From Bdellovibrionales bacterium (GTDB taxonomy: Bacteria; Bdellovibrionota; Bdellovibrionia; Bdellovibrionales; UBA1609): 64,000 nucleotides of DNA. The DNA is taken from NCBI GenBank assembly GCA_015163875.1, contig JAAOIH010000003.1, forward strand, positions 10,347-74,346. Direction: 5' to 3'. Each line of letters starts with the position of its first letter. Positions within the stretch are counted from its first letter, which is position 1. The notes under the pieces were generated by a model that saw only the letters and a program-made list of their open reading frames with translations, was not told the DNA's origin and ran no database searches. Shown here in pieces: positions 1,805 to 61,975 of this stretch. The translations under genes were made by a program, and so were the position numbers.

Positions 1805-2341
1805 GTGCTGTCTCGTAAAATTATTGTTCCAGTTGCATTAGTTGTTATATTGCTGTCTTTGTCTGTTTGGATTTTTCTTGTAACAAATAATAAAGTAGTA
1901 TTTGGTTACAATATTAACTACCAGCCCACACAGCCAATTGCTTATTCTCATAAACTTCATGCAGGAAAATACAAAATTGATTGCAGATATTGTCATTCAA
2001 ATGTTGATAAATCTAGACACGCAACTATTCCTAGTTTAAATATTTGTATGAACTGCCACTTGTCTGTTAAAACAGGCAGCCCGTTAATTCAAAAATTAAG
2101 TCAGCAATATATAAATAACAAACCTGTAGAATGGCAAAAAGTTCATCTGTTGCCAGATTATGTAAAATTTGACCACTCAAAACATGTTAATGCAGGTAAG
2201 AAGTGTCAAGATTGTCATGGTCAGATAGAAAACATGGAAGAGGTTTTTCAAAAAGAAAGTTTGTCTATGGGCTGGTGTGTGGATTGTCATAGAAAAAAAG
2301 AAAATAACGCACCAACAAGTTGTGTAACTTGTCATTATTAA
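1805..2341 (+). CDS. actA: Alternative Complex III subunit ActA, pentahaem cytochrome c
   Basis: GTG start and N-terminal TM anchor. Five CxxCH motifs (CRYCH, CMNCH, CQDCH, CVDCH, CVTCH). First gene of the act-type order. Confidence 0.85.
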   Translation: MLSRKIIVPVALVVILLSLSVWIFLVTNNKVVFGYNINYQPTQPIAYSHKLHAGKYKIDCRYCHSNVDKSRHATIPSLNICMNCHLSVKTGSPLIQKLSQQYINNKPVEWQKVHLLPDYVKFDHSKHVNAGKKCQDCHGQIENMEEVFQKESLSMGWCVDCHRKKENNAPTSCVTCHY

Positions 2342-2376
2342 TACAGGGATTATTTTTAATTAAAAGGATTTAGCTA

Positions 2377-5300
2377 ATGGAAAAAGAAATTAAACATACA
2401 GAAAAAACAAAAATTAATAAAAAAATAATTTTACCTAAAGATAAACCAGAAAGTGGTTACTGGCAGAGCCTTGCGGAACTACAAAACACAGAAGACTTTA
2501 AAAAATCTGTTGCTAATGAATTTGCTACAACTCCAACAGAAAAAGAAAAAGAAGAAGGTTGGGCAAGAAGAGATTTTTTAAAATTAATGGGAGCAAGCCT
2601 TGCTTTAAGCACTTTTGCTTGCACAAGAAAACCTACTCAAAAAATTGTACCTTATGTTAAAAGACCAGACGATGTTATCCCAGGAATTGCAAATCATTAT
2701 GCTTCAAGCTTTGTTGACGGTTCAGAAGTTTTTGGAATAGTTGTAAAAACTAGAGAAGGCCGACCTATTAAAATTGAAGCTAACCAAGAATATCCAGGCT
2801 CATTAAAAAAAATTTCTATGCGAGCAACAGCCAGTGTATTATCTTTGTATGATCCAGATAGATTAAAAGCTCCAGCACAACATTTATTAAATTCTAAAAA
2901 AACTAATTACGACAGCTTGCCAATAAAATGGAAAAAATTAGACGCTGCAGTAGTTAAAGAATTAAAAAAATCTTCAGTTGGAATATTAACTGGAAGCATA
3001 AGCTCTCCAAGTACAAAAGCTTTAATTTATAATTTTAAACAAGCTTACAAAGCTCGACATTATTCTTGGGATATAGAAAATTTTGACTCTTTAAAACAAG
3101 CACAAAAAATATCTTACGGCACAAGCCTTGTTCCTCATTACAGATTAGATAAAGCAAAAATGATTTTATCAGTAGGGGCAGATTTTTTAGGTTCGTATTT
3201 GTCTCCAACAGAAATGTCTGGATTATTTGCAAAAGGTCGCAAGCCCTCTAAAAATATGAGCAAACTTGTTATGTTTGAATCAGGATTATCTTTAACTGGG
3301 TCAAACGCAGATATTAGACACGGAGTTAAATCTTCTGAGTACTTAAGTATTTTAATGGGAGTTTTATACCAATTAATTATAGTAAAAAAACGATCATCTT
3401 ATGCTTGGGATAAAAATCTTCGTCAAATTTTAACAAATTATAACGAAAGTATTTCTTTAGTAGAATTAAATAAAAAATTAAATTTATCAAATATCGCAGA
3501 TGAATTATGGAGCAACCGCAAAAAAAGTTTAGTTATCACGGGAGGTGTTTCGACCGAAACAAAAGACTCTACTTTGCTACACATAACTGCTAATTTTTTA
3601 AATACATTATTATCTAATGACGGTAGAGTTGTAGATTACAAAGAATCTAATTACACATCTTTTAAATCTTCTGAAAAAGATTTAACTAAACTTATTTTAG
3701 ATATTAAATCAGGATTGGTTAAAAGATTAATTATTCATGACACTAATCTTTTATACAGCAATGCAGGTAATAAAGATTTATTAAAAGCTTTAAAAAAATT
3801 AAAATTATTAGTTTATATAGGATCTCATTTAGACGAAACTGCTAAAATTAGTAATTTTGTTGCACCAGATAATCACTCATTAGAAAAATGGGGAGATAAC
3901 CAAGGGCAAAATAAATTATACTCTATAATGCAGCCGACTATTTCACCTCTTTATGACACAAGGTCTTTTCAGGACTCTTTAATATCTTGGATTAAAGAAG
4001 TAAAAGTTTTTAATTCAAAAGATTATTATTCTTATTTAAAAAATTATTGGCGTTATCAATTTTATCCTAAATACAAAAAAACAAATCAAACATTTGATGA
4101 TTTTTGGTTTGATATTTTGCAAAAAGGTTTTGTAGATGCAAATAAAAATCGCTATAAAACTAACAACTCTGTTCGTAAATTTAATATGTCTGCTTTGTCA
4201 TGGCTAAAACCAAGTTTGCCTCTTAATTCATACGAGCTATCTTTAGATTCTAACATTGCCACTCGTTCTGGAAAAATGACAAATGTATCTTGGCTCCAAG
4301 AAGTTCCTAACCCTATAACAAAAATTTGTTGGGATAATTATTTATCTATACCTTTATCAATGGCAGATAAAGAAAATTTAAAACAAGGCCAAGTTGTTGA
4401 ATTAAAAACCTCCACAGATAAAAATGCAGAAACTATAAAAGTTCCAATTCATATTCAGCCAGGACAAGCTGATAATACTATGTCTTTATTTATTGGGTAC
4501 GGACAAACTTATGGCTCGGTAGCTAAAGGAGTTGGTGTTAATGCGTTTGCATTACTAAACTTTATTAAAAATAAAAAAGTTTATGCAGGCATGCCAGCAT
4601 TTATTAAAAAAACTAGCAAAATTAATTTATTAGCAAGTACTCAAAGCCAACATAGTATGCAAGGTCGCCGTATTGTTATTGAAAAAACTTTAGATGATAT
4701 TTTAACTTTAACAAAACCTATTGAAAGCCGAGAGAAACAACCAACTTTGTGGTCTACTATAAAATACAAAGGACAAAAGTGGGGAATGAGTATTGATTTA
4801 AATACATGCACTGGTTGCTCAAGCTGTGTGATTGCTTGTCAGTCTGAAAACAATATTCCTACAGTTGGAAAAAAATATGTTTCAGAAGGAAGGTCAATGC
4901 ATTGGATGCGAATTGATAGATACCACACTGGTGATGCAAAAAACCCTGATACAGTTTTTCAACCAGTAACTTGTCAGCATTGTGATGAAGCTCCATGTGA
5001 AACTGTTTGTCCAGTTGCTGCAACCGTTCATGGTGATGAGGGGACTAACGACATGATTTATAACAGATGTGTTGGCACTCGTTATTGTGCAAACAATTGT
5101 CCTTATAAAGTTCGTAGATTTAATTGGTTTGATTTTACTAAATTAAGCACACCTCTAGAGATGTCTTTAAATCCAGAAGTTAGTGTTCGTGACAGAGGTG
5201 TTATGGAAAAATGTTCTTTTTGTTTACACAAAGTAACAGAACTTAGACATAAAAAATCTGTTGATAAAAAAACTAAACATATTAATGATGGCGAAGTGCA

Positions 5301-5523
5301 AACTGCCTGCCAAGAAGCTTGTCCGACTAATGCTATTAATTTTGGCGACAGCAATGATAAAAAAACAAAAGTGTCTAAAGATTTTGCAAGTAAAAGAGCT
5401 TACACTTTATTGCATGAACTAAATTTAAAACCAGGATTAAGATACAAAGCAAAAGTAAAAAATGTAAAAAAATTAAAATCAGAAAAAAAATCTTCTAAGC
5501 ACGGGGGGTCTAGTCATGGCTAA
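2377..5523 (+). CDS. actB: ACIII subunit ActB (molybdopterin-oxidoreductase-like domain fused to a 4Fe-4S ferredoxin domain)
   Basis: Twin-arginine motif [14 protein letters not shown]. Large MopB-like N-terminal part. C-terminal Cys clusters ([44 protein letters not shown]). Confidence 0.9.
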
Positions 5524-6868
5524 AAGACCCATTTTAGTATTAGACAATAAAGATTACAAACAAGTTACAGAAGATGTGTGCTCGTTAGTTGAAACAGTTC
5601 CTGGAAAAAATTTTTTTGCATTACTACTAGCTTCTAAATCTTTACTTTTATATTTTATAATTACAATGGGGTTAATTGCAGTTTATGGAATGGGATTAAT
5701 GGGAGTAAACAGCCCAGTAGGCTGGGGTACTGACATTGTTACTTTTGTTTTTTGGATTGGTATCGGACATGCAGGAACTTTAATTTCTGCTATTTTATTT
5801 TTATTTAGGCAAAAATGGAGAACCTCTATTGCAAGAACCGCAGAAGCTATGACTGTATTTGCAGTAATGACTGCAGGAATTTTTCCATTACTTCATACAG
5901 GTAGGCCGTGGCTAGCGCATTGGTTATTACCTTACCCAAATCAGCGCGGACCATTATGGGTAAATTTTAGATCACCTTTAATTTGGGATGTATTTGCAGT
6001 TTCTACATACGCTTTAGTGTCTATGACTTTTTGGTATGTAGGTTTAGTTCCTGATTTAGCAACTGTTAGAGACAGAGCAAAAAATAAAGTTCGTAAATTT
6101 ATATACGGAGTTTTATCTATGGGGTGGAGGGGTACCGCCAGACATTGGAACCATTACGAAATGGTTTATATGATTCTTGCAGGATTATCTACTCCTTTAG
6201 TTTTATCTGTGCATAGTATTGTATCTTTTGACTTTGCAGTTTCACAATTGCCAGGTTGGCATACTACTATTTTTCCACCTTACTTTGTTGCTGGTGCAGT
6301 ATTTTCTGGCTTTGCAATGGTTGTAACTTTAATGTCTATTTTACGAACAGTAATCCCTCATTTTAAACACTATGTAACAGTAAATCATTTAGAGTTAATG
6401 AATAAAATTATTATGACCACAAGTTTGCTTGTAGGATATTCTTACGCTGCTGAATTTTTTATTGCATGGTACTCAGGTCACGGAGTAGAGCAATATGCTT
6501 TTATTAACAGAGCTTTTGGCCCTTACTGGTGGTCTTATTGGATAATGGTTTCATGTAATGTAATTATACCACAACTTTTTTGGTTTAAAAAAATTCGTCG
6601 CAACTTAATAGTAATGTTTATTATTTCTATTTTTGTAAATATTGGAATGTGGTTTGAAAGATTTGTAATCACAGTAACATCTTTACATAGAGATTTTTTA
6701 CCTTCTAGCTGGGGAATGTTTAATTTTTCGGCCTATGATTTAGGTGCAATTTTTGGTAGCTTTGGTTTATTTTTTATGTTGTTTTTAATTTACTTAAGAG
6801 TATTTCCATCTATTTCTATGTCAGAGGTAAAACCTGTATTAAAAGTGGGGCGTGATGATGAACACTAA
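5516..6868 (+). CDS. actC: ACIII subunit ActC (NrfD/PsrC-family quinol-interacting membrane subunit)
   Basis: Polytopic membrane protein of ~450 aa with NrfD-like sequence. Overlaps actB by 8 nt. Confidence 0.85.
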
Positions 6869-7445
6869 AAACACAATTATACAAAAAATAAAAACTATAT
6901 TTTGTAAAATAGAAAATTATATAAAAAGTCCAACTAAAAAAGGAACCGCTGCTTTTTGGTTAGACGATCATCAATTAATTAAAGCCGCTAAAGAAATGAC
7001 AGACAGTGGATTTTCTGGATTCGAAGCTGTATCACCTTTTCCATTACACGGAATTGACGAAGCTATGAACATACCAAGATCATTTATCCCTTGGGCAACA
7101 TTTTTTTTAGGTTTAACAGGTTGTGCTTTTGGTATTTGGTTTACATGGTGGGTTGCTGTAGTTGATTGGCCTTTAAATATTGGAGGTAAGCCGATGTGGT
7201 CTTTTGCTGCTTTTATACCTATTATTTTTGAGCTAACTATTTTGTTTGCAGCATTAGGCTCGGTTGCTTTAATGTTTTTTATAAACGGATTACCTAGTGT
7301 TAACCCTCCCATTTTAGATAAAGATATAACAAGTCATAAATTTGCAATTTTTATTCCCGAAGAAGAAATTAAAGGCAGAGGTGCAGAGCTTGAGCAAATT
7401 TTTAATAAATTTGGAGCTATAGAAGTTAAGCAATCAGAATTTTAA
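6852..7445 (+). CDS. actD: ACIII subunit ActD (DUF3341-type membrane protein)
   Basis: Position in the operon, motif [12 protein letters not shown] followed by two TM helices, and overlap with the actC stop. Confidence 0.7.
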
Positions 7446-7455
7446 AAAGGTTATT

Positions 7456-8034
7456 ATGAATAAAAAAAAATTACACAAACTATTTATAAACACAGTCTAT
7501 AGTTTATTGCCTGCCTTATTAATTGCATCTTGTAACGCTGGTAAAAATCAAACAAATTACGAAACAAGTATGGGTATGTTTGAACAAAAATCTTTAAAAG
7601 CACAAGGTTTTAATAAAAACAATAATAAACATAATTTTATTACACCTCCAAAGGGAAGTGTGTCTAAGGAAAAAGAAAAATTTTTATACAAACAAGCCTA
7701 TCAGGCAGAAAAAAATTTAAAAAATCCTTTTAAAAAAAAATATACTGCAGAAGTTTTACTAAATGGAAAAAACCTTTATACTATTTACTGTGCACTTTGC
7801 CATGGAAAAACAGGATTAGGGGACGGTCAAATTGCAGCTAAAATGATTATTAAACCACCATCTTTGTTGTCTTATAAAATAAGAAAATCATCTGATGGAT
7901 TAATTTATTATATTATTAAAAAAGGACAAGGTTTAATGGGGTCTTATGCTAATCAAATCCCTAAGCCAGAGGACAGATGGGCAATTATAAATTATATTAG
8001 AACATTACAAAAATTTAATAATACAGTGAAGTAA
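7456..8034 (+). CDS. actE: ACIII subunit ActE, monohaem cytochrome c lipoprotein
   Basis: Lipobox LLIASC and a single CALCH haem motif. The stop codon lies inside the first unit of the 12-bp tandem repeat. Confidence 0.8.
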   Translation: MNKKKLHKLFINTVYSLLPALLIASCNAGKNQTNYETSMGMFEQKSLKAQGFNKNNNKHNFITPPKGSVSKEKEKFLYKQAYQAEKNLKNPFKKKYTAEVLLNGKNLYTIYCALCHGKTGLGDGQIAAKMIIKPPSLLSYKIRKSSDGLIYYIIKKGQGLMGSYANQIPKPEDRWAIINYIRTLQKFNNTVK

Positions 8035-17347: not shown

Positions 17348-18403
17348 ATGGACATCAATCAGTTTCAAAATAGAAAGCAAGATCACATTCGACTAGCTTT
17401 AGACGAAGCTAATCAAGCTAGTGTAGAATTTAATCAATGGAGTAAAGTAAACTTACTTCACGAAGCATTAGTTGATTTAAATTTTTCAGAAGTTAGTTTG
17501 TCTTCTACAATTTTAAATCAAAAAGAAAAAACTCCTTTTTTTATTAGCTCCATGACAGCAGGCCATGACTCTTCGGCTAAAATTAATTTATCATTAGCTA
17601 AAGCTTGTGTTAAAAAATCTTGGTTTATGGGAGTGGGATCACAAAGAAAAGAATTATCAGATAATAGTTTAGCTAAAAAATCTTTTAAAGAGTGGGAGCT
17701 AATCAGAGCACAAGTACCAGATATTAAATTATTAGCCAATATTGGAGTTAGCCAATTAATTTCACATCCAATAGAAAAAATAAAATCCCTAGTCACCTCC
17801 ACAAATGCCAAAGCTTTAATTATTCACTTAAATAGTTTGCAAGAAGTTTTACAAATTGAGGGAACTCCAGAATTTAAAAACTCAACTAAAGCTATAGAAA
17901 ACTTATGTAAGTCTTTAAAAGTACCAGTTATTATTAAAGAAACAGGATGTGGATTTTCAAAAAAAACTTTATTAAATCTTTACAACCTAGGCGTTTCAGT
18001 AATTGATGTGGCTGGCCTTGGAGGTACTCACTGGGGATTAATAGAAGGCGCAAGAGCTAAGCAGGGAAGTTTGCAAAATCAAGCCTCTCAAACTTTTGGA
18101 TCTTGGGGGATTAGCACTGTGCAAAGTTTAATATGGGCTTCAGAAATTAAAAAAAATAAAAAATCTTTTGAGTATTGGGCATCAGGCGGAATTAAAAATG
18201 GATTAGATGCAGCCAAAGCTTTAGCACTAGGGGCAACAGCAGTTGGAGTTGCTCAGCCAATTTTAAAAGCTTTACAAATTAGCGAAGAACAACTGCTAGT
18301 TAAGATGAATTTGCTAGAATATGAATTAAAAATAGCTTTATTTTGCTCTGGTTGTAAAAATATTATAGAATTAAAAGATAAACTTTTATTAAAATCTATT
18401 TAA
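17348..18403 (+). CDS. fni: isopentenyl-diphosphate delta-isomerase, type 2 (FMN-dependent)
   Basis: RKQDHIRLAL, SSMTAG, GVGSQR, ETGCGFS, VAGLGGTHW and ASGGIKNGLDAAKALALGA motifs. Confidence 0.9.
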   Translation: MDINQFQNRKQDHIRLALDEANQASVEFNQWSKVNLLHEALVDLNFSEVSLSSTILNQKEKTPFFISSMTAGHDSSAKINLSLAKACVKKSWFMGVGSQRKELSDNSLAKKSFKEWELIRAQVPDIKLLANIGVSQLISHPIEKIKSLVTSTNAKALIIHLNSLQEVLQIEGTPEFKNSTKAIENLCKSLKVPVIIKETGCGFSKKTLLNLYNLGVSVIDVAGLGGTHWGLIEGARAKQGSLQNQASQTFGSWGISTVQSLIWASEIKKNKKSFEYWASGGIKNGLDAAKALALGATAVGVAQPILKALQISEEQLLVKMNLLEYELKIALFCSGCKNIIELKDKLLLKSI

Positions 18404-18419
18404 GCAAAGGAATAATAAA

Positions 18420-19691
18420 ATGTCAGGTTATAACTTAGATGGATTTTCTAAATTAAGTAGGTCTAAAAGATTTGAAAAACTTTTAGAATTAGGTTGTTTA
18501 ACTAAAAAAGATGTTAAACTTTTGCAAGGGCCTTACCCAATACCTGTAGAATTGGCAGAAAATTTTATTGAAAATGTTATTGGATATTTTCCTATGCCAT
18601 TTGGAGTTGCAACTCATTTTGTAATTGATAATAAAGATTATATTATCCCAATGGTAGTTGAAGAAACTTCTATTATAGCAGCAGCTAGTAAAACTGCTAA
18701 GTGGATTAAAAATAATGGTACAATTATTACAGAAAGCTTAGGCTCGCTTTCTATAGGGCAAATTCAAATTGCTGATGTAAAAGATTTTAATAATTTAAAA
18801 AATATTCTTGAAAAAAATAAACTAGATTTAATTAATCAAGCAAATTTAAAAGTTGCCAATGGTTTAGTAGCAAGGGGCGGAGGAGTAATTAATTTAGAAA
18901 TTAAAAAACTTGATAATATGGCAATTATACATGTGCTTGTTGATACTTGCGAAGCAATGGGAGCTAATATTATTAATCAAGTTTGTGAATTTTTAAAAAA
19001 ACCTATCGAACAACTAAGTTTAGAAAAAGTAAGTATATGTATTTTAACTAATTTAGTAGATACAAAATTAGTTAAAGCTAAAGTAACTTTAAAAAATTTA
19101 GATCCAAACTTATGTTTAAAAATTGAACAAGCATCTAGATTTGCAGAAAAAGATCCTTATAGAGCTGCAACAAATAACAAAGGCGTATTAAACGGAATTG
19201 ACCCTATATTACTTGCAACAGGAAATGACTGGAGAGCGGTAGAGGCAGGAGTTCATAGTTACGCAAGTGCTAATGGAAAATATAGCTCAATTACTAAATG
19301 GAGATCAAAAAATTCTGGAACTTTAGTTGGGACTTTAATAGCACCAATTGTTGTTGGAACAGTTGGAGGGGTTACAAAATTGCACCCAATGGCTAAAATG
19401 AGTTTACAAATTTTAAAAATATCCTCTTCTAAAGAATTATCTAAAGTATGTGCCGCTGCAGGATTAGTTCAAAATTTAGGAGCATTAAAAGCTTTAACTA
19501 CAGAAGGAATTATTGAGGGGCATATGAAGCTGCATATTAAAAATTTAGTTATGTCTATAAACGAAGAAGAAAAGCTTAACAACAAAGAGTCAGAGTTGTT
19601 ATCTAGTGGTTTAGAAAATTTACTTATCAAAACTAAGCGTGTTTCTTTACAACATGCAAAAACTATTTTAACAGAAATTAGATATAAATAA
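18420..19691 (+). CDS. mvaA: hydroxymethylglutaryl-CoA reductase, class II
   Basis: ENVIGYFPMPFGVA, VVEETSIIAAAS, EAMGANIIN and NNKGVLNGIDPILLATGNDWRAVEAG motifs. Confidence 0.9.
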   Translation: MSGYNLDGFSKLSRSKRFEKLLELGCLTKKDVKLLQGPYPIPVELAENFIENVIGYFPMPFGVATHFVIDNKDYIIPMVVEETSIIAAASKTAKWIKNNGTIITESLGSLSIGQIQIADVKDFNNLKNILEKNKLDLINQANLKVANGLVARGGGVINLEIKKLDNMAIIHVLVDTCEAMGANIINQVCEFLKKPIEQLSLEKVSICILTNLVDTKLVKAKVTLKNLDPNLCLKIEQASRFAEKDPYRAATNNKGVLNGIDPILLATGNDWRAVEAGVHSYASANGKYSSITKWRSKNSGTLVGTLIAPIVVGTVGGVTKLHPMAKMSLQILKISSSKELSKVCAAAGLVQNLGALKALTTEGIIEGHMKLHIKNLVMSINEEEKLNNKESELLSSGLENLLIKTKRVSLQHAKTILTEIRYK

Positions 19692-19715
19692 TAAGCCAGC
19701 CTGCAATACTAAATT

Positions 19716-20849
19716 TTGGAGAAAGCTATTTTAAATTGTTTTAATAAATATTTAATAGATATTTATATTCCAAGTAAAACTTTTTTATTAGGAGAGTATC
19801 TTGCTTTAAGTGGAGGCCCTAGTTTATTAATAAACACTCCAAAAAATTTTATTTTAAAAATTAATCAGCCTGATGATTGTAATTTTTTAAAACAAATTAA
19901 TAATAAAAAAACTCATCCTGCTTTTTTATTATTAAAAGACTATATAGGGCAATTAAATACTTGCGATACAGATAAATTTAAAAATTTTTTTAAAAATTGT
20001 TCTTTTAAAGATCCATATAATGCCAGCGGAGGTTTTGGCTGCTCTGGAGCAGAGTTTTTATCTGTTTATATTATTATTAATTTGCATAAACTTTTTTTTA
20101 ATAAAAAAGAAAATATTTTAAATACAACAAATACAACAAATGCTGACAACAAAATTAGTATACAAGAGTTTAAACAAAAATGGGACACTTTTTTAAATAC
20201 AGAAAAAAAAGAATTAAATGTTTTTTATACATTTAAAAAATTAACTAATTTAGGCAGTGGATTTGATATATTATCACAATTATTTGGCTCATTAGTATTT
20301 TTAGAATTTTTAGATAAAAATTTAGATTCACATAGTTTAAATTCACATAGTTTAGATTCAGCTAATATCTCTAATTTTAAATATAAAAACTTTTATTGGC
20401 CATTTAAAAATTATCAATTTTCTATTTTAAAAAGTAAAAATAAAGTTGATACTTATAAACATTTATCAAGCATAACAAAATCAAAATTAGATATTGTAAA
20501 AAAAGCTTTAACGCCAACAGTAAAAAAAGCTTTTATAGCTATTGATGAAAAAAATATAGATAATTTTTTATCCTCCGTAACAGAGCAGCAAAAAATTTTA
20601 GAAAAACAAGGGCTTGTTTGTTTAGAGTCTACAAATACAGTTAAAGAATTTAATAAAATACCAGAAATTTTAGCTAGCAAATCTTGTGGAGCTTTAGGGG
20701 CAGATACATTTTTAATTTTTTATAGCTCAGACAGCAAAGACATTATAAAAGAAAAAATAAAGACTAGTAAAATTCTATCTTCTTTGTTATTTATTAAAGA
20801 TAATTATTTATCCGATGGTTTAAAATTACAAATTAAAGATATAAAATAA
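19716..20849 (+). CDS. mvaK2: GHMP-family kinase, probable phosphomevalonate kinase
   Basis: N-terminal PSKTFLLGEYLALSGG (PMK-like). Degenerate GHMP motif GGFGCSGAE. C-terminal KSCGALGADTF. Sits between HMGR and MVD. TTG start. Asn/Thr-rich low-complexity insert. Confidence 0.65.
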   Translation: MEKAILNCFNKYLIDIYIPSKTFLLGEYLALSGGPSLLINTPKNFILKINQPDDCNFLKQINNKKTHPAFLLLKDYIGQLNTCDTDKFKNFFKNCSFKDPYNASGGFGCSGAEFLSVYIIINLHKLFFNKKENILNTTNTTNADNKISIQEFKQKWDTFLNTEKKELNVFYTFKKLTNLGSGFDILSQLFGSLVFLEFLDKNLDSHSLNSHSLDSANISNFKYKNFYWPFKNYQFSILKSKNKVDTYKHLSSITKSKLDIVKKALTPTVKKAFIAIDEKNIDNFLSSVTEQQKILEKQGLVCLESTNTVKEFNKIPEILASKSCGALGADTFLIFYSSDSKDIIKEKIKTSKILSSLLFIKDNYLSDGLKLQIKDIK

Positions 20850-20874
20850 ACTGCTCATAATATGGACTTAAATA

Positions 20875-21933
20875 ATGACTTATTTTGACAACAAAGACTC
20901 TTTTAAGCATCAGGTATTAAAAAAATCTCCATCTAATATTGCTTTAATTAAATATATGGGCAAATTACCAGGTACAAAAAATTTACCTGCAAATCCGTCT
21001 TTGTCTTATACTTTAAAAAATTTAACCACATCTGTAGCTGTTAATAAAAATATTACTATAACAAAATCTGCGGCTAAAATTACAGATAAAGATACATCTA
21101 CATTTAACTTGTGCCAAGACCAGTGGAAGCCTTTAGATTCTAAATTAAAATTAACAAAAAAATCTCAAGAAAGATTTTTAAAGCATTGGTCTTATTTAAA
21201 AAAATATTTTAATATAAAAGGCTCTTATACTATTTTGTCATCTAATAATTTTCCAGCATCTTGTGGACTAGCAAGTTCTGCATCTAGTTTTTCTGCCTTA
21301 ACTAAAGCAGCTTATCAAATCTCTTTAGATAATGGTAAAAGCAAATTAAAATTAGTTGATTTAGCAAACTTAAGCCGAGCTGGGTCTGGATCATCTTGCA
21401 GATCTTTATTTTTAAATTGGGCAGAGTGGGACGGAAGTGATGTTAAAGATTTACCAGTTCACAAAGATTATATAAATTTAAATCATAATGTTTTATTAGT
21501 TTCAACAAATACAAAAAAAGTGTCTTCATCAGAAGCTCATAGTAGAGTTTTAGAGCATTCAGATTTTAATAATAGAGTAAAAAGATCAAAACAAAGATTT
21601 GTAAAATTAAAAAATCTTTTAACAAAGCCAAATCAATTTTTAGCTATCAAAGATCTTGTTTGGAATGAGTTTATAGACATGCACCAATTATTTGAAACCT
21701 GTCCAAAGCCTTTTTCTTATTTTACTCCTGTTGTAAAAGATATTTTAAAAGATTTAAGTTATTTTATAACAGAGCAAAAAATTAATTTATTAGTTACAAT
21801 GGATGCTGGCCCTAATATTCATTTATTATATCCAAAAAAAGAAGAAGATAAAATAAAAATATATTTATACAAGCTAACAAAAAAATATAAATTAACAGAT
21901 TTAGGTACTTTTAATAAAAATACAAATGTTTGA
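20875..21933 (+). CDS. mvaD: diphosphomevalonate decarboxylase
   Basis: APSNIALIKYMGK, FPASCGLASSASSFSAL, SRAGSGSSCRS and TMDAGPNIHLL motifs. Confidence 0.9.
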   Translation: MTYFDNKDSFKHQVLKKSPSNIALIKYMGKLPGTKNLPANPSLSYTLKNLTTSVAVNKNITITKSAAKITDKDTSTFNLCQDQWKPLDSKLKLTKKSQERFLKHWSYLKKYFNIKGSYTILSSNNFPASCGLASSASSFSALTKAAYQISLDNGKSKLKLVDLANLSRAGSGSSCRSLFLNWAEWDGSDVKDLPVHKDYINLNHNVLLVSTNTKKVSSSEAHSRVLEHSDFNNRVKRSKQRFVKLKNLLTKPNQFLAIKDLVWNEFIDMHQLFETCPKPFSYFTPVVKDILKDLSYFITEQKINLLVTMDAGPNIHLLYPKKEEDKIKIYLYKLTKKYKLTDLGTFNKNTNV

Positions 21934-22798
21934 AATTAAAACACACAGTAAATGCATTATCACGGGAGAGCACTCTGTATTAAGGGGAAAGTCTGCCATA
22001 GCCGTTCCGTTAAAAGATAAATTTTTAAAATTTATTTTTAAACCAGGTGGAAAAAAATTAGATATTATTTTTAATTCTAATTCTAAAATAATGCAGTTAT
22101 TATTTAATAATGTTTTTAATATAGTTTTAAGTAAAATTTCAGAAAAAGTAATTGATATAAAGGGTAAGTTAATTATTGAAAGCACTTTATCTTTTGGATC
22201 AGGCCTTGGTAGCTCTGCAGCTCTATGCTCTGCTATAAGCTTATGGTTAAAAGAGCTAAATGTAATTAAAAAAGATCAAGTTTTTGATTTTGCAAAATCT
22301 TTAGAAGACTCTTTTCACGGGACAAGCAGCGGTGTAGACATTGCAGCTGCTTTATCTAGCTCAACTATTTTATTTAATATTAACTCAGGTTTTAAAAAAG
22401 TTAATTTTAAAAATTCTCCATTTTTGGCCTTAAGTAATTCTGAATCAAAAGGTTCTACTAAAAAAGCAGTATTACAAGTTCAAAACTGGATAAAAAAAAA
22501 TCATAAAATCCATGCTAAGTTAGATAATGCAATTCAAAAAGCTACAGATTTAATTTTAGAAACAAAAAATTTAAGCAGAACCCAATCTGTGCCTTTTTTT
22601 AAAGAAGCTTTTGATTTATCAAAAAATTCTTTTAATAAGTGGGGACTTATAACTACAGATTTACAAAAACATATGTTAGATTTAAAATCAAGCGGAGCAA
22701 TTGCAACAAAGCCTAGTGGAGCAGGTCTTGGAGGCTGTGTTTTAAGTTTATGGACAACAAAACCTAAAGATAAAAATTTAACATTAATTAAACTATAA
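21926..22798 (+). CDS. mvk: mevalonate kinase
   Basis: IITGEHSVLRGKSAIA, GSGLGSSAALCSAIS and KPSGAGLGGCV GHMP motifs. Overlaps mvaD by 8 nt. Confidence 0.8.
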   Translation: MFEIKTHSKCIITGEHSVLRGKSAIAVPLKDKFLKFIFKPGGKKLDIIFNSNSKIMQLLFNNVFNIVLSKISEKVIDIKGKLIIESTLSFGSGLGSSAALCSAISLWLKELNVIKKDQVFDFAKSLEDSFHGTSSGVDIAAALSSSTILFNINSGFKKVNFKNSPFLALSNSESKGSTKKAVLQVQNWIKKNHKIHAKLDNAIQKATDLILETKNLSRTQSVPFFKEAFDLSKNSFNKWGLITTDLQKHMLDLKSSGAIATKPSGAGLGGCVLSLWTTKPKDKNLTLIKL

Positions 22799-58543: not shown

Positions 58544-59734
58544 CTATTCAATAATTGAGGAAACAACCCCTGCACCAACAGTACGGCCACCCTCACGAAT
58601 TGCAAATCTTAATCCTTTCTCCATTGCTATAGGTGCGATTAATTCTACAGTTACATCAATATTATCACCTGGCATAACCATTTCTACGCCTTCTTTTAAA
58701 GTCACAACACCTGTAACATCTGTTGTTCTAAAATAAAACTGAGGTCGGTATCCATTAAAAAATGCAGTGTGACGACCACCCTCATCTTTTTGTAAAATAT
58801 AAGCTTCGCACTTAAATTTTTTGTGAGGAGATATGCTTCCAGGTTTGCATAAAACTTGTCCTCGTTCTACTTCTTCTTTTTTAACACCACGAATTAAACA
58901 ACCAGCATTGTCGCCAGCCTTTCCTTCATCAAGAAGTTTTCTAAACATTTCAATACCTGTAACTGTAGTTTTTTGAGTGTCTTTGATTCCTACAATTTCA
59001 ACTTCTTCTCCAACTTTAACAATACCTTTTTCAATACGGCCAGTTACAACAGTACCACGGCCTGAAATAGAGAAAACATCCTCTACCGGCATTAAAAATG
59101 GCTTGTCTACTTCTCTTGCTGGAGTTGGAATATATTTATCAACCTCTGCCATTAATTTTACAATAGATGGAGCCCCAATGTCAGAAGTGTCACCCTCTAA
59201 AGCTTTTAATGCAGAACCTTGAATAATAGGGATTTTATCTCCTGGAAATTCGTATTTAGATAAAACTTCTCTAATTTCTAATTCAACTAATTCTAATAAT
59301 TCTGGATCGTCTACTTGGTCTACTTTGTTCATAAAAACAACCATAGATGGAACGCCAACTTGTTTTGCTAATAAAATATGTTCACGAGTTTGGGGCATAG
59401 CTCCGTCTGCTGCAGAAACTACTAAAATAGCTCCGTCCATCTGTGCTGCGCCGGTAATCATATTTTTTACATAATCGGCATGGCCAGGACAATCAACATG
59501 GGCATAATGTCTGTTTTCTGTAGAATATTCTACATGCGAAGTTGCGATAGTAATACCGCGCTCTCTTTCTTCTGGAGCTTTATCAATGTCATCGTAATTC
59601 ATAGCCGTTGCACCACCAGACTCTGCAAGAACTTTAGTAATTGCTGCTGTTAAAGTAGTTTTACCATGATCCACATGTCCAATCGTACCTATATTAATGT
59701 GTTCTTTACTTCGATCAAATTTCTCTTTAGCCAT
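58544..59734 (-). CDS. tuf: elongation factor Tu
   Basis: Canonical EF-Tu from [34 protein letters not shown] lies upstream of the ATG at 59734. The 17 extra N-terminal codons in the track ORF are not conserved EF-Tu sequence. Confidence 0.95.
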
Positions 59735-59883
59735 GCTTCCTCCTAATGGTATTTTACTAGCTGTGACATTGTTATATTCCAACAAACACCTTGTTTCTAC
59801 ATTTAAAAAATGTCAAGCTTTTTTGGAATAGCAAAAAGGTCTTTTTAAAATATCAAACAGACATTTTTTTTAAAATATCAAAA

Positions 59884-59958
<75 letters not shown>

Positions 59959-59968
59959 GTTAGTTTTA

Positions 59969-60054
59969 AAATAAATCTTTATAAAGTTAGACCTATTGCT
60001 CAGGCACTCCTGCGGAGTGAGTCGCAATAGGTCTAACTTTATAAAGATTTATTT
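59969..60054. repeat. palindromic element A: perfect 31-bp stem around a GC-rich 24-nt loop
   Basis: 59969-59999 is the exact reverse complement of 60024-60054. The loop at 60000-60023 is TCAGGCACTCCTGCGGAGTGAGTC and contains the mini-palindrome CACTCC-TGC-GGAGTG. Confidence 0.95.
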
Positions 60055-60122
60055 AAAGATTAAAAATTTATTTCTGGGGCTCTCTGCAGAAAGATTTATT
60101 TAAAGATTAAAAAATTTATTTC
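60043..60122. repeat. 2 x ~32-bp direct repeat AAAGATTTATTTAAAGATTAAAAATTTATTTC
   Basis: Copies at 60043-60074 and 60090-60122 (the second has one extra A). Copy 1 overlaps the right arm of element A. A third partial copy (ATTAAAAAAATTTATTT) lies in the left arm of element B. Confidence 0.9.
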
Positions 60123-60137
60123 ACTTTTCTCTACAAT

Positions 60138-60237
60138 AAAAATTAAAAAAATTTATTTTTAGCCTGTCCAATTGCGACTCACTCCGCAGGAGTGCCGGAG
60201 CAGTTGGACAGGCTAAAAATAAATTTTTTTAATTTTT
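60138..60237. repeat. palindromic element B: 38-bp stem (one T:G position) around a 24-nt loop that is the reverse complement of loop A
   Basis: 60138-60175 pairs with 60200-60237. The loop at 60176-60199 is GACTCACTCCGCAGGAGTGCCGGA, the reverse complement of loop A except for one base. Confidence 0.95.
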
Positions 60238-60287
60238 TGTGAGTTTGACAGGGGGTTTTTGTTGGTGTTTAAATTAGTTTACTCTTA

Positions 60288-60363
60288 GCGGGAGTAGCTC
60301 AATTGGTAGAGTATCAGCCTTCCAAGCTGAGGGTTGCGGGTTCGAGACCCGTCTCCCGCTCCA
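60288..60363 (+). tRNA. tRNA-Gly (TCC)
   Basis: Acceptor GCGGGAG/CTCCCGC, D arm GCTC-AATTGGTA-GAGT, anticodon arm TCAGC-CTTCCAA-GCTGA, T loop TTCGAGA, encoded CCA. Confidence 0.9.
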
Positions 60364-60466
60364 AATTTTTTTGATCCGAGGTCATGACCCTCAAATATGG
60401 GTTTATTGGTAGTTTATGATTTTTAAAATTATTTGCAAATATTTAATAATTATTACTTAATGTGGT

Positions 60467-61975
60467 ATGTATTTTAAAATAAAAAATAATTCTGCTTTAA
60501 TTATTATCCTTGCTTTGGCTTCTTGCCAAAATTCTTCTGACTTAAAATTTAAAAATCATATTAAAATAGGCATAGAGCAAAAAATAAAAAATCTTAATCC
60601 ATTAAAAGCTACAGCGGCCTTGGATATGCGATTGGGAGGTTTAATATTTAGCTCATTTGTTAAGCTTGATAAAAACCTTACTGTTACTGGAGATTTGGCC
60701 AAATCTTGGAGCTATAAAAATAATATTTATACTTTTTTGTTAAAAAAAAATATTCGTTTTTCCAATGGGAGGGGTCTGACTAAAGAGGATATTGTTTTTA
60801 GTTTTAATGCGTTTAAAAATCCTAAATGTATTTTTCATCATGCTTTTTCTGTTATAAAAAAAGTAAGTGTAAAAAAAAATTTAAAAACTAAAAGTTTTAT
60901 TGTTAAATTATTTTTAAAAAAATCTTCTGCAAAGTTTTTAAGGGCAGACCTCCCTGTTTTAAAAATTTTACCTAAAAAAGAATTTTTACAAAATAAAGAT
61001 TCTTTTAATCAACTTCCAATTGGGACTGGCTCTTATTATATAAATAAAGCCAAGTCTTATAACATTGAGTTAAAACCAAATGTCCACTCAAAAAATCCTG
61101 GAAAAACTTCTTTATTATTTAAAGTTGTGCATGATAATACCACTCGTTATCAAAAATTACTAAAACAAGATATCGATATAAGTTTTAATAATACAGAAAT
61201 TATTAAAGTAACCGAACTTAAAAAAAATTCTGATTTTAAAATTTACACAAGCCCTGGATTGTCGGTTGTTTATTTACTTTTAAATTTAAAGCATCCTCTT
61301 ATTTCACAAATTAATATGCGAAAAGCTATTAAAAATAGCTTAGATGTAAAAAAAATTATTAAATACAAATTAAAAGGTTTTGCAAGTCACGCGCGATCTT
61401 TATTAAACCCTAATCATTTATTTTTTAACACTAAATTAAAAACTTATAATTTTAATTTAAAAAAAGCAAAAAAGTTTTTACAAAAAATACATTTATCTCC
61501 AATAACTTTAAAAGTTAGTAGCAAACCTAGCTCGATTAATTTTGGAAAAATTTTATCTCAGCAAATTAAACAATCTGGAATAAATATTAAATTAAAAAGT
61601 TTGGAATGGGGTATTTTATATAAAGATTTAAAAAATTCTAATTTTGACATTGCTCTTATGAGCTGGTCTGGAGTAATTGACCCAGACATTTACCGCATAG
61701 CCTTTCATAGTTCTGAGTGGCCTCCAGGCAGAAATAGATCTTTATATAAAAACTTAAAATTAGATAAACTTTTAGAGCGCGGCATATATGCTTTAAATTT
61801 AAATAGTAGAAAAAAAATATACAACCAAGTGCAAAAAATTATATCAAAAGATGTTGCAGTTATACCTTTGTGGCATAAAAAACAAATTATCATAAGTCAC
61901 AAAAATATCTTGGGTCTTGTGCCATCTTTAACAGAAAGTTTTTCGCCTTTAGTTAATGTTATCAAAAAAAAATAG
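60467..61975 (+). CDS. ABC transporter substrate-binding lipoprotein, family 5 (peptide/nickel type)
   Basis: Lipobox ILALASC. SBP_bac_5-like sequence (LTVTGDLAKSW, GTGSYYI, WSGVIDPD). No permease or ATPase genes are adjacent. Confidence 0.8.
   Translation: MYFKIKNNSALIIILALASCQNSSDLKFKNHIKIGIEQKIKNLNPLKATAALDMRLGGLIFSSFVKLDKNLTVTGDLAKSWSYKNNIYTFLLKKNIRFSNGRGLTKEDIVFSFNAFKNPKCIFHHAFSVIKKVSVKKNLKTKSFIVKLFLKKSSAKFLRADLPVLKILPKKEFLQNKDSFNQLPIGTGSYYINKAKSYNIELKPNVHSKNPGKTSLLFKVVHDNTTRYQKLLKQDIDISFNNTEIIKVTELKKNSDFKIYTSPGLSVVYLLLNLKHPLISQINMRKAIKNSLDVKKIIKYKLKGFASHARSLLNPNHLFFNTKLKTYNFNLKKAKKFLQKIHLSPITLKVSSKPSSINFGKILSQQIKQSGINIKLKSLEWGILYKDLKNSNFDIALMSWSGVIDPDIYRIAFHSSEWPPGRNRSLYKNLKLDKLLERGIYALNLNSRKKIYNQVQKIISKDVAVIPLWHKKQIIISHKNILGLVPSLTESFSPLVNVIKKK

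Follow-up and report, generated by a model that had tools for sequence, protein, structure and literature searches.

The 64,000-nucleotide stretch of Bdellovibrionales DNA analysed here (the window; contig JAAOIH010000003.1 of assembly GCA_015163875.1, positions 10,347 to 74,346 of the forward strand) carries two long palindromes, hairpin A and hairpin B, in the spacer between the genes for tRNA-Thr(GGT) and tRNA-Gly(TCC). We favour, at slightly better than even chances, the view that the two are members of a lineage-restricted and undescribed family of extragenic palindromes, most likely acting as intrinsic terminators, many of them bidirectional, or as hairpins at 3' ends, in which hairpin B is the ancestral member and hairpin A a newer copy with a flipped core. 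Conservation in this family is reversed, in that an invariant asymmetric centre sits on arms that evolve freely and are always complementary. This pattern of a conserved centre on free arms, together with repeated lineage-specific doubling, is what is unusual about the elements; the class to which they belong is itself familiar.

Two hairpins with one inverted core

The arms of hairpin A (59969-59999 with 60024-60054) form a perfect stem of 31/31 bp, found both by reading the sequence and with a repeat finder, and beyond an A:A mismatch nine outer pairs extend it to 59960-60063, of which 93% is paired. Those of hairpin B (60138-60175 with 60200-60237) form a stem of 38 bp (97%), the sole exception being T60172:G60203. 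Both loops are 24 nt long, and loop A (60000-60023, TCAGGCACTCCTGCGGAGTGAGTC) and loop B (60176-60199, GACTCACTCCGCAGGAGTGCCGGA) are reverse complements of each other at 23 of the 24 positions. An earlier prediction, made from the letters alone (the original prediction), had described the same arm coordinates, stem lengths, single T:G position, 24-nt loops and inverted near-identical cores, all of which are confirmed base for base. The apical mini-hairpin that it had placed within the shared module is likewise present in both predicted folds (6 bp with a 3-nt loop). Folding of the spacer predicts two independent hairpins, each topped by this mini-hairpin (RNA z = -15.4), with z = -13.4 and -12.6 for the two when folded as DNA. 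When the window was block-shuffled 30 times with its composition preserved, the longest perfect stem (loop of at most 30 nt) reached 14 bp, against the 31 bp observed, and the 21-mer GGCACTCCTGCGGAGTGAGTC, which occurs exactly twice in the window, once per strand, appeared in none of 100 shuffles. Over the 88 nt of arms plus core, A and B show 73% complementarity, and their inner arms show a faint likeness (TTAG(A)CC...ATTGC). With a covariance model (R1) the core of hairpin A reached 83.4 bits when read on the minus strand and 36.2 bits when read on the plus strand; neither this model nor the repeat finder detected a further hairpin of this class in the 64-kb window. The coordinates of the features are collected in Table 1.

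Table 1. Features of the tRNA-Thr/tRNA-Gly interval in the window, and the intergenic sites of the hairpin family.
Feature	Position	Strand	Remarks
tRNA-Thr(GGT)	59884..59958	+	ARAGORN and Rfam; transcription unit preceding the hairpins; inverted relative to tuf in this clade
Hairpin A	59960..60063	.	perfect 31-bp arms; extra copy; without a clean T-tract 3' of the stem
Hairpin A core	60000..60023	-	GACTCA-CTCC-GCA-GGAG-TG-CCTGA; mini-stem 60005-60010 with 60014-60019
AT-rich tandem repeats between hairpins	60030..60158	+	unit AAAGATTAAAAA(A)TTTATTT at 60055, 60102 and 60139; 40-nt repeat at 60030 and 60077
Hairpin B	60138..60237	.	15-bp GC-containing inner stem, AT extensions, T7 past the 24-bp point of the stem
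Hairpin B core	60176..60199	+	GACTCA-CTCC-GCA-GGAG-TG-CCGGA; mini-stem 60180-60185 with 60189-60194; R1 77.8 bits on the plus strand
Promoter-like TTGACA-N17/18-TTTAAA/TTAAAT	60245..60274	+	13 nt before tRNA-Gly; read from sequence
tRNA-Gly(TCC)	60288..60363	+	ARAGORN and Rfam; downstream unit
Site in window/L084/L085 (L122)			between tRNA-Thr and tRNA-Gly
Site in L099			between ccsA and groES-groEL
Site in L109			between lepA-lepB and a pyrB-like gene
Site in L118			between convergent SLT and recA
Site in L119			between an ABC ATPase gene and a sigma-54 activator gene

A single hairpin at the tRNA site of the sister lineage

Close relatives of the window are few, with NusG identity falling from 94% and 88% directly to 58%. 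We distinguish lineage W (the window, JAAGOD01 and SRR11301537), lineage K (JAAOIK01/VSKW01 and SRR11301534), lineage S (SRR31358910) and a fourth lineage (SRR33616128). A NusG-guided locus search among GTDB representatives returned distant relatives only (at most 55% identity), which have the canonical tRNA cluster and no core. Lineage K (L084/L085) shares the layout of the window, in which tuf diverges from tRNA-Thr, tRNA-Gly and SBP, and its spacer of 178 nt holds one hairpin, with the stem CCTTGCCCTTTTGC/GCAAAAGGGCAAGG, the 24-nt loop GACTCAGCCCAAAGGGTTGCCCGA and then CTTTTTAATTTTTT (in L084 the sequence after the stem reads ...GGCTTTTTAATTTTTT). Alignment of the interval (A1) places this hairpin opposite hairpin B. 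Hairpin A is missing from the L084 spacer and makes up, together with 60064-60137, about 180 nt of extra DNA specific to the window, the AT-rich repeat stretch between the hairpins being window-specific relative to L084. The stems of hairpin B and of L084 are unrelated in sequence; their loops share GACTCA...TGCCNGA and a TTGC/GCA closure, and the apical mini-stem has changed with compensation (CTCC/GGAG in the window, GCCC/GGGT in lineage K). Comparison of the tRNA interval among relatives, as the original prediction had proposed, thus gives one hairpin in sister lineage K and two in the window. By this alignment hairpin B is the positional orthologue of the sister hairpin; it appears to be the ancestral, vertically inherited copy and the singlet the ancestral state, with hairpin A a putative newer, lineage-specific local copy whose core is flipped.

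A more distant syntenic relative from a sponge metagenome (L090) has a spacer of 140 nt without a hairpin. Contigs L086, L087, L088 and L089 were truncated or lacked synteny and so did not contribute to the comparison of the spacer. Contig L082 of lineage S (SRR31358910) starts 87 nt upstream of tRNA-Gly, a start that fits a k=31 break at a perfect inverted repeat of at least 31 bp ending at L082:30. Lineage S probably also carries a long-stem hairpin at the tRNA site.

A dispersed family with a conserved centre

A scan of JGI/NCBI metagenome contigs with the degenerate pattern TGCGACTCA-N11-TGCCNGAGCA gave 42 loci, most of them on GC-rich contigs without flanking complementarity and so chance or coding matches. 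On the AT-rich contigs L099, L109, L118 and L119 the core stands atop palindromes of 20-30 bp with 0-3 mismatches, as it does on L122 (the L085 locus), and synteny-guided look-ups contributed L084, the two hairpins of L133 (H1 and H2), L136 and L137. The family then comprises 13 hairpins at five intergenic sites in four uncultured Bdellovibrionales lineages, in both orientations and none of them inside a gene. As the SLT protein of L118 is 100% identical to that of a lineage-K metagenome-assembled genome, lineage K holds at least two of the loci and probably four. The density is one locus in the 64-kb window, and at least four loci were found in the VSKW01 metagenome by a strict-pattern scan. 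Scans of 185,579 species genomes, of JGI metagenomes and of IMG/VR gave no exact match to the 21-mer GGCACTCCTGCGGAGTGAGTC; these collections seemingly do not include the window's own record. The degenerate pattern had no match among viral contigs, blastn of the spacer none among plasmid and phage records, and R1, run on the window and on about 230 kb from other Bdellovibrionota loci, detected no additional copy.

The site between SLT and recA was recovered from all four lineages. Lineage S (L136, loop GACTCAGCCTAAAAGGCTGTTAGA) and the fourth lineage (L137, loop GATTCAGCACAAAGAGCTGTCGA) carry a single hairpin there, and L133 (JAAGOD01) carries two. In L133 the stem of H2 is orthologous to those of L118, L136 and L137, and its loop reads GATTCAGCCCTCCTAGGGCTGCCTGA; H1, with arms of 32-34 bp, adjoins the SLT stop codon, and its loop TCAGGCAGCCCTAGGAGGGCTGAGTC is an inverted copy of the H2 core. 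The spacer between H1 and H2 is filled by AT-rich tandem repeats analogous to those of the window spacer, H1 and H2 are 82% complementary over 56 nt, and their inner arms are again faintly alike (TTTA(A)G(Y)TCT..TGC). Lineage W is thus doubled at two sites (tRNA and SLT/recA) at which its sister lineages have one hairpin each; the identity between lineages W and S is 80% at L133, against 82% for SBP. The cores are near-identical inside each doublet (23/24 in the window, 25/26 in L133) and different between doublets, suggesting that the second copy was made from, or homogenised with, its neighbour and not with a genome-wide master. The faint likeness of the inner arms within doublets would fit a diverged inverted duplication.

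Throughout the family locus-specific stems of 14-38 bp are capped by the conserved GC-rich core, whose consensus is GAYT-CA-[4-5 bp]-NNN-[4-5 bp]-TG-YYNGA (23-26 nt, usually with a TGC/GCA closure). Invariant within it are the closing G-C/C-G pairs, the GA at its 5' and 3' edges and the CA/TG base of the mini-stem. Because the internal loop is asymmetric in every copy (4 nt against 4-5 nt), an orientation can be assigned to each core, and relative to the upstream gene it reads UCAGG...GAGUC in about seven cases and GACUCA...CCNGA in about three. In a model-based alignment of 10 copies (an ungapped 7-copy version of the analysis was also made) 94.2% of cells form standard pairs, with both sides changed in 19 of the 26 pairs. 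None of 500 shuffles reached the observed pairing, and register-shifted controls paired at 33-50%. The stems of L118, L133-H2, L136 and L137 are recognisably homologous and differ by compensatory double changes, and among stem mismatches A:C/C:A are as frequent as G:T, with no enrichment of G:U. On inspection the strand layout of the internal loop fits none of the K-turn, sarcin-ricin or tetraloop-receptor consensus motifs.

Two side observations concern the SLT/recA site. In L137 an AT-only perfect palindrome of 20 bp (1896-1937, ATTAATAAAAATAATTTAAT-TT-ATTAAATTATTTTTATTAAT), without the GC core, lies directly after the SLT stop codon, where H1 lies in lineage W, and is followed by tandem TAAGAT-type repeats. 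The csrA gene lies divergently upstream of SLT in L133 (9032-9229), L136 (9625-9846) and L137 (611-823); a CsrA (GGA) site in the core was considered and set aside, GGA motifs being inconsistent among the copies by eye, and we claim no link.

Probable role at gene and operon ends

All copies of the family are intergenic and stand at the ends of genes or operons, including the convergent SLT/recA pair. At the orthologous SLT/recA hairpin the flanking A-run and T-run are kept in four lineages, and most family copies carry such flanks; in hairpin B, L084, L118, L133-H2, L136 and L137 the stem-loop is followed directly by a T-tract at the 3' end of the unit. Next to hairpin B the promoter-like block is almost unchanged among the window, L082, L084 and L085 (lineages W, K and S; alignment A1) and is probably tRNA-Gly's own promoter, which suggests that the hairpins close the tRNA-Thr unit. 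The elements thereby resemble bidirectional Rho-independent terminators in their operon-end position, in the order of A-tract, stem-loop and T-tract and in their conservation at orthologous sites, and judging from position and flanks a terminator role is the most likely one. They differ from ordinary terminators in having stems of up to 38 bp and a structured tip of 23-26 nt with conserved unpaired bases that is common to unrelated loci.

Several points weigh against this interpretation. The T-tract is weak or missing in hairpin A and L133-H1, so that not all copies are classical terminators, and stems of 31-38 bp far exceed what termination needs. A plain terminator also leaves it unexplained that GAYT/YYNGA is conserved while the stems vary, which needs either sequence-specific recognition or descent by copying; from the conserved tip at unrelated loci it follows that the family is related by copying, held by the constraint of a common factor, or both. 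Finally, that L133 belongs to the window's own genome is likely and not certain, on the basis of its co-occurrence in SRR11301537, the NCBI organism name and consistent identity ratios.

Under the favoured interpretation, hairpin B would end the tRNA-Thr unit just before the tRNA-Gly promoter and would have been passed down vertically, and hairpin A would have arisen as a newer local copy with its core flipped, like H1 in L133, either by inverted local duplication or by inversion of a hairpin loop. The arms could stay complementary and yet diverge between loci through template switching (quasipalindrome correction) combined with selection for the hairpin, and the near-identical cores of each doublet may reflect gene conversion or constraint from a putative core-recognising factor. 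Template switching pushes quasipalindromes towards perfect inverted repeats (PMC7202029), and small inversions of hairpin loops are described for chloroplast DNA in PMC5492656, which cites Kelchner & Wendel (1996). With these two processes the joint change of the arms and the flip of the loop can be explained without a dedicated enzyme. Quasipalindrome hotspots and chloroplast loop inversions thus offer an enzyme-free means to perfect arms and to flipped loops, but they are mutational processes and not families of elements, and the conserved asymmetric core is not explained by them. The compensatory changes among orthologues can be read just as well as the outcome of selection for the hairpin. 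If confirmed, the family would be a compact example of how terminators are acquired and kept up in a streamlined, AT-rich, uncultured bacterium, and a natural system in which to study the origin of doublets of the kind that leads from single repetitive extragenic palindromes (REPs) to paired ones (REPINs), the upkeep of palindromes by template switching as against selection, and the reading of the core by a protein.

Alternative explanations

It is possible, if unlikely, that the hairpins are non-autonomous elements of REP/REPIN type, the core being a REP bound as a single-stranded DNA hairpin by a RAYT or IS200/IS605-like HUH transposase encoded elsewhere, and A and B making up an inverted doublet of REPIN type. 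Active, enzyme-driven copying is all that sets this proposal apart from the terminator family that we favour, with which it otherwise overlaps. Among the four readings offered in the original prediction it comes nearest and is partly supported, the elements being REP-like in behaviour: the dispersed extragenic module, its two orientations and the inverted doublets at two loci agree with it, whereas the ancestral singlet, the self-capped palindromes and the absence of a RAYT/IS200 gene from the window and the fetched loci do not. Like a REP, the core is short, GC-rich and imperfectly palindromic, with asymmetric flanks that set its orientation, and it is extragenic and present at at least five loci in both orientations; as in REPINs, the inverted doublets consist of one core variant, and the surroundings are not conserved and yet form hairpins and are flanked by A/T runs, which suggests co-option as attenuators or terminators (PMC3337134). 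Long vertical persistence is a further likeness (bioRxiv 10.1101/2021.07.10.451892). The complementarity of arms plus core given above for A and B and for the L133 pair points the same way, and that a single lineage has doubled its hairpins at two loci suggests that the process is active.

Against enzyme-driven copying stand the low density and low apparent copy number (about one locus in the 64-kb window, with GGCACTCCTGCGGAGTGAGTC lacking exact copies in the scanned collections), the lack of a GTAG-type 5' motif, and the ancestral singlet, which is stable at orthologous sites in four lineages. The two REPs of a REPIN pair together at its base, whereas here a single core sits at the apex of its own perfect, locus-specific palindrome and is not paired with a partner core. 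No Y1/HUH transposase, RAYT, IS200-like or recombinase gene was found among the approximately 40 open reading frames of the window, which are of housekeeping type (Alternative Complex III, mevalonate pathway, tRNA synthetases, UvrB, RecG, PNPase and others), and no transposase, RAYT or recombinase among the precomputed Pfam calls of L083/84, L133, L136 and L137 (about 0.15-0.2 Mb of these genomes). The host differs as well, being an AT-rich Bdellovibrionales-like lineage and not a gamma- or betaproteobacterium.

Rather unlikely, in our estimation, is a related proposal in which the core (GAYT...YYNGA around the mini-hairpin) is the recognition module of a putative trans-acting enzyme or binding protein that seeds inverted local copies, the surroundings of each copy then being moulded into a locus-specific perfect palindrome. 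If true, this would be a new type of non-autonomous element of which the apex alone is the element, its arms built from or co-evolving with the host locus, and it would supply the terminators of the genome.

We consider it decidedly unlikely that the hairpins are structured RNAs, with the internal loop and apical hairpin forming a protein-bound motif or serving in 3'-end processing or stability of tRNA or mRNA. The strong covariation and conserved unpaired bases are what such a role would leave, GC-rich islands in a genome of low GC content (29% in the window) are typical of functional RNAs, and two stem positions, a G:U in the apical stem of L084 and the T:G of hairpin B, amount to wobble pairs in the transcribed strand. 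Perfect stems of at least 22 bp would be substrates of RNase III. The two core orientations relative to the upstream gene (about seven against about three) mean that no single RNA motif is kept, which argues for a function at the DNA level or one independent of orientation; A:C/C:A mismatches are as many as G:T, and palindrome-correcting mutation can mimic covariation. In Rfam the tRNAs alone passed the gathering thresholds, and at E<=10 the hairpins gave generic miRNA-precursor-like matches far below them, so that the check for a known RNA family, proposed with the original prediction, found no match to the hairpins. The structured-RNA reading offered there is thus possible as far as it goes, weakened by the occurrence of the core in both orientations with respect to transcription.

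A site of site-specific recombination or DNA inversion, at which the core was flipped between the arms or the elements inverted tRNA-Thr, is very improbable. The hints for it are indirect: the cores of A and B are mutually inverted, tRNA-Thr(GGT) has been turned round in place when compared with L090 and with the canonical Thr-Tyr-Gly-Thr-tuf order, and contig L135 (Logan SRR11301536) ends at L133:10314, the exact arm/loop junction of H1, and not 30 nt into the arm, an end to be expected if the SRR11301536 sample contained a loop variant or both orientations of the loop. No recombinase or invertase gene lies nearby among the open reading frames of the window, at each of SLT/recA (four lineages) and the tRNA site (two lineages) the orthologous cores all point the same way, and a loop of 24 nt is too short for conventional synapsis of the arms. 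Of this earlier suggestion the inverted cores, the flipped tRNA-Thr and the L135 end therefore stand as hints, and the orthologues, with their orientation kept, speak against it.

An assembly or fold-back artefact can be given hardly any probability. Perfect palindromes are a classic outcome of multiple displacement amplification or of assembly errors, and short-read contigs do break at the palindromes. The breaks fall, however, where a real 31-mer inverted repeat predicts them, in a strain with 0.5% divergence. Contig L001 of Logan SRR11301537, from a near-identical strain assembled separately, matches the window around tuf but for 23 of 4455 nt; it confirms the left arm of hairpin A and stops at window position 59998, after 30 nt of that perfect arm. 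This is the very point at which a k=31 de Bruijn graph is forced to branch when it meets a 31-bp perfect inverted repeat. For a second palindrome, contig L134 ends at L133:10312, as the same k=31 arithmetic predicts. Homologous hairpins are present in NCBI, ENA-independent and Logan assemblies from at least six runs, and orthologous stems carry compensatory substitutions. The original prediction had held that an absence of copies elsewhere would point to a one-off artefact; the outcome was the opposite, with copies both in relatives and at other loci. The palindromes of this family break short-read assemblies at predictable positions and also mark the clade. The core resembles no sequencing adaptor known to us, and an adaptor origin was rejected in view of its substituted homologues in many independent runs.

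The suggestion of a miniature inverted-repeat transposable element (MITE) with 26-bp terminal inverted repeats across both cores fails, since hairpin B alone is orthologous to the sister singlet, the DNA between the cores is a window-specific AT-rich tandem repeat, and the arms differ at every locus with the centre alone invariant (alignments A3 and A4). No direct repeat indicative of a target-site duplication was found in the flanks of A (TCCAG / AAATT) or B (ACAAT / TGTGA), although very short ones are possible in AT-rich DNA. MITEs and the Correia/NEMIS, ERIC, RUP and Rickettsia palindromic elements are small, non-coding, hairpin-forming dispersed repeats that can carry terminators to new sites. 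In those elements the whole unit with its terminal inverted repeats is conserved and target-site duplications occur, unlike here, where the centre alone is conserved.

The tRNA interval and its surroundings

On the minus strand the neighbours of the interval are tuf (58544-59734), tRNA-Trp, secE, nusG and rplKAJ, and an OppA-type lipoprotein gene (60467-61975) lies 3' of tRNA-Gly. Other Bdellovibrionota have a canonical Thr(TGT)-Tyr-Gly(TCC)-Thr(GGT)-tuf cluster (loci L003, L005 and L007). The window keeps the order of tRNA-Thr(GGT) and tRNA-Gly(TCC), both facing away from tuf, and tRNA-Tyr and tRNA-Thr(TGT) are missing at the locus. In the outgroup L090 tRNA-Gly alone is flipped and tRNA-Thr is on the tuf strand, from which it follows that tRNA-Thr was inverted in place in the window's clade, beside the present hairpin site. 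A hidden or decayed tRNA-Tyr in the spacer was rejected, there being no tRNA-like fold in it and the core being unlike tRNA arms by eye.

Within the second 47-nt repeat unit between the hairpins lies a GC island, GGGGCTCTCTGCAG (60076-60089), with TTTCTG/CAGAAA flanks (60070-60093); in the first 47-nt unit the inner right arm of hairpin A occupies the corresponding position. The island may be what is left of a third hairpin that decayed, or else a product of slippage. Immediately upstream of tRNA-Thr a perfect 16-nt direct repeat, TTTTTAAAATATCAAA, is present in two copies 25 nt apart (59842-59882), inside a 45-nt insertion that is missing from lineage K (alignment A1), and may duplicate a -10-like TAAAAT box. 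Past tRNA-Gly and a T7 run there is a palindrome, GGTCATGACC (60380-60389), within CCGAGGTCATGACCCTC (60375-60395), which is missing at the equivalent position in L082 and L084. Elsewhere in the window an Alternative Complex III cluster (1805-8034) encodes multihaem cytochromes and ActD, and a mevalonate cluster (17348-22798) encodes an FMN-dependent dehydrogenase (probably IDI-2-like), HMG-CoA reductase, a diphosphomevalonate decarboxylase-like protein and a GHMP kinase; both clusters are of ordinary metabolic type and are of use in characterising this uncultured lineage.

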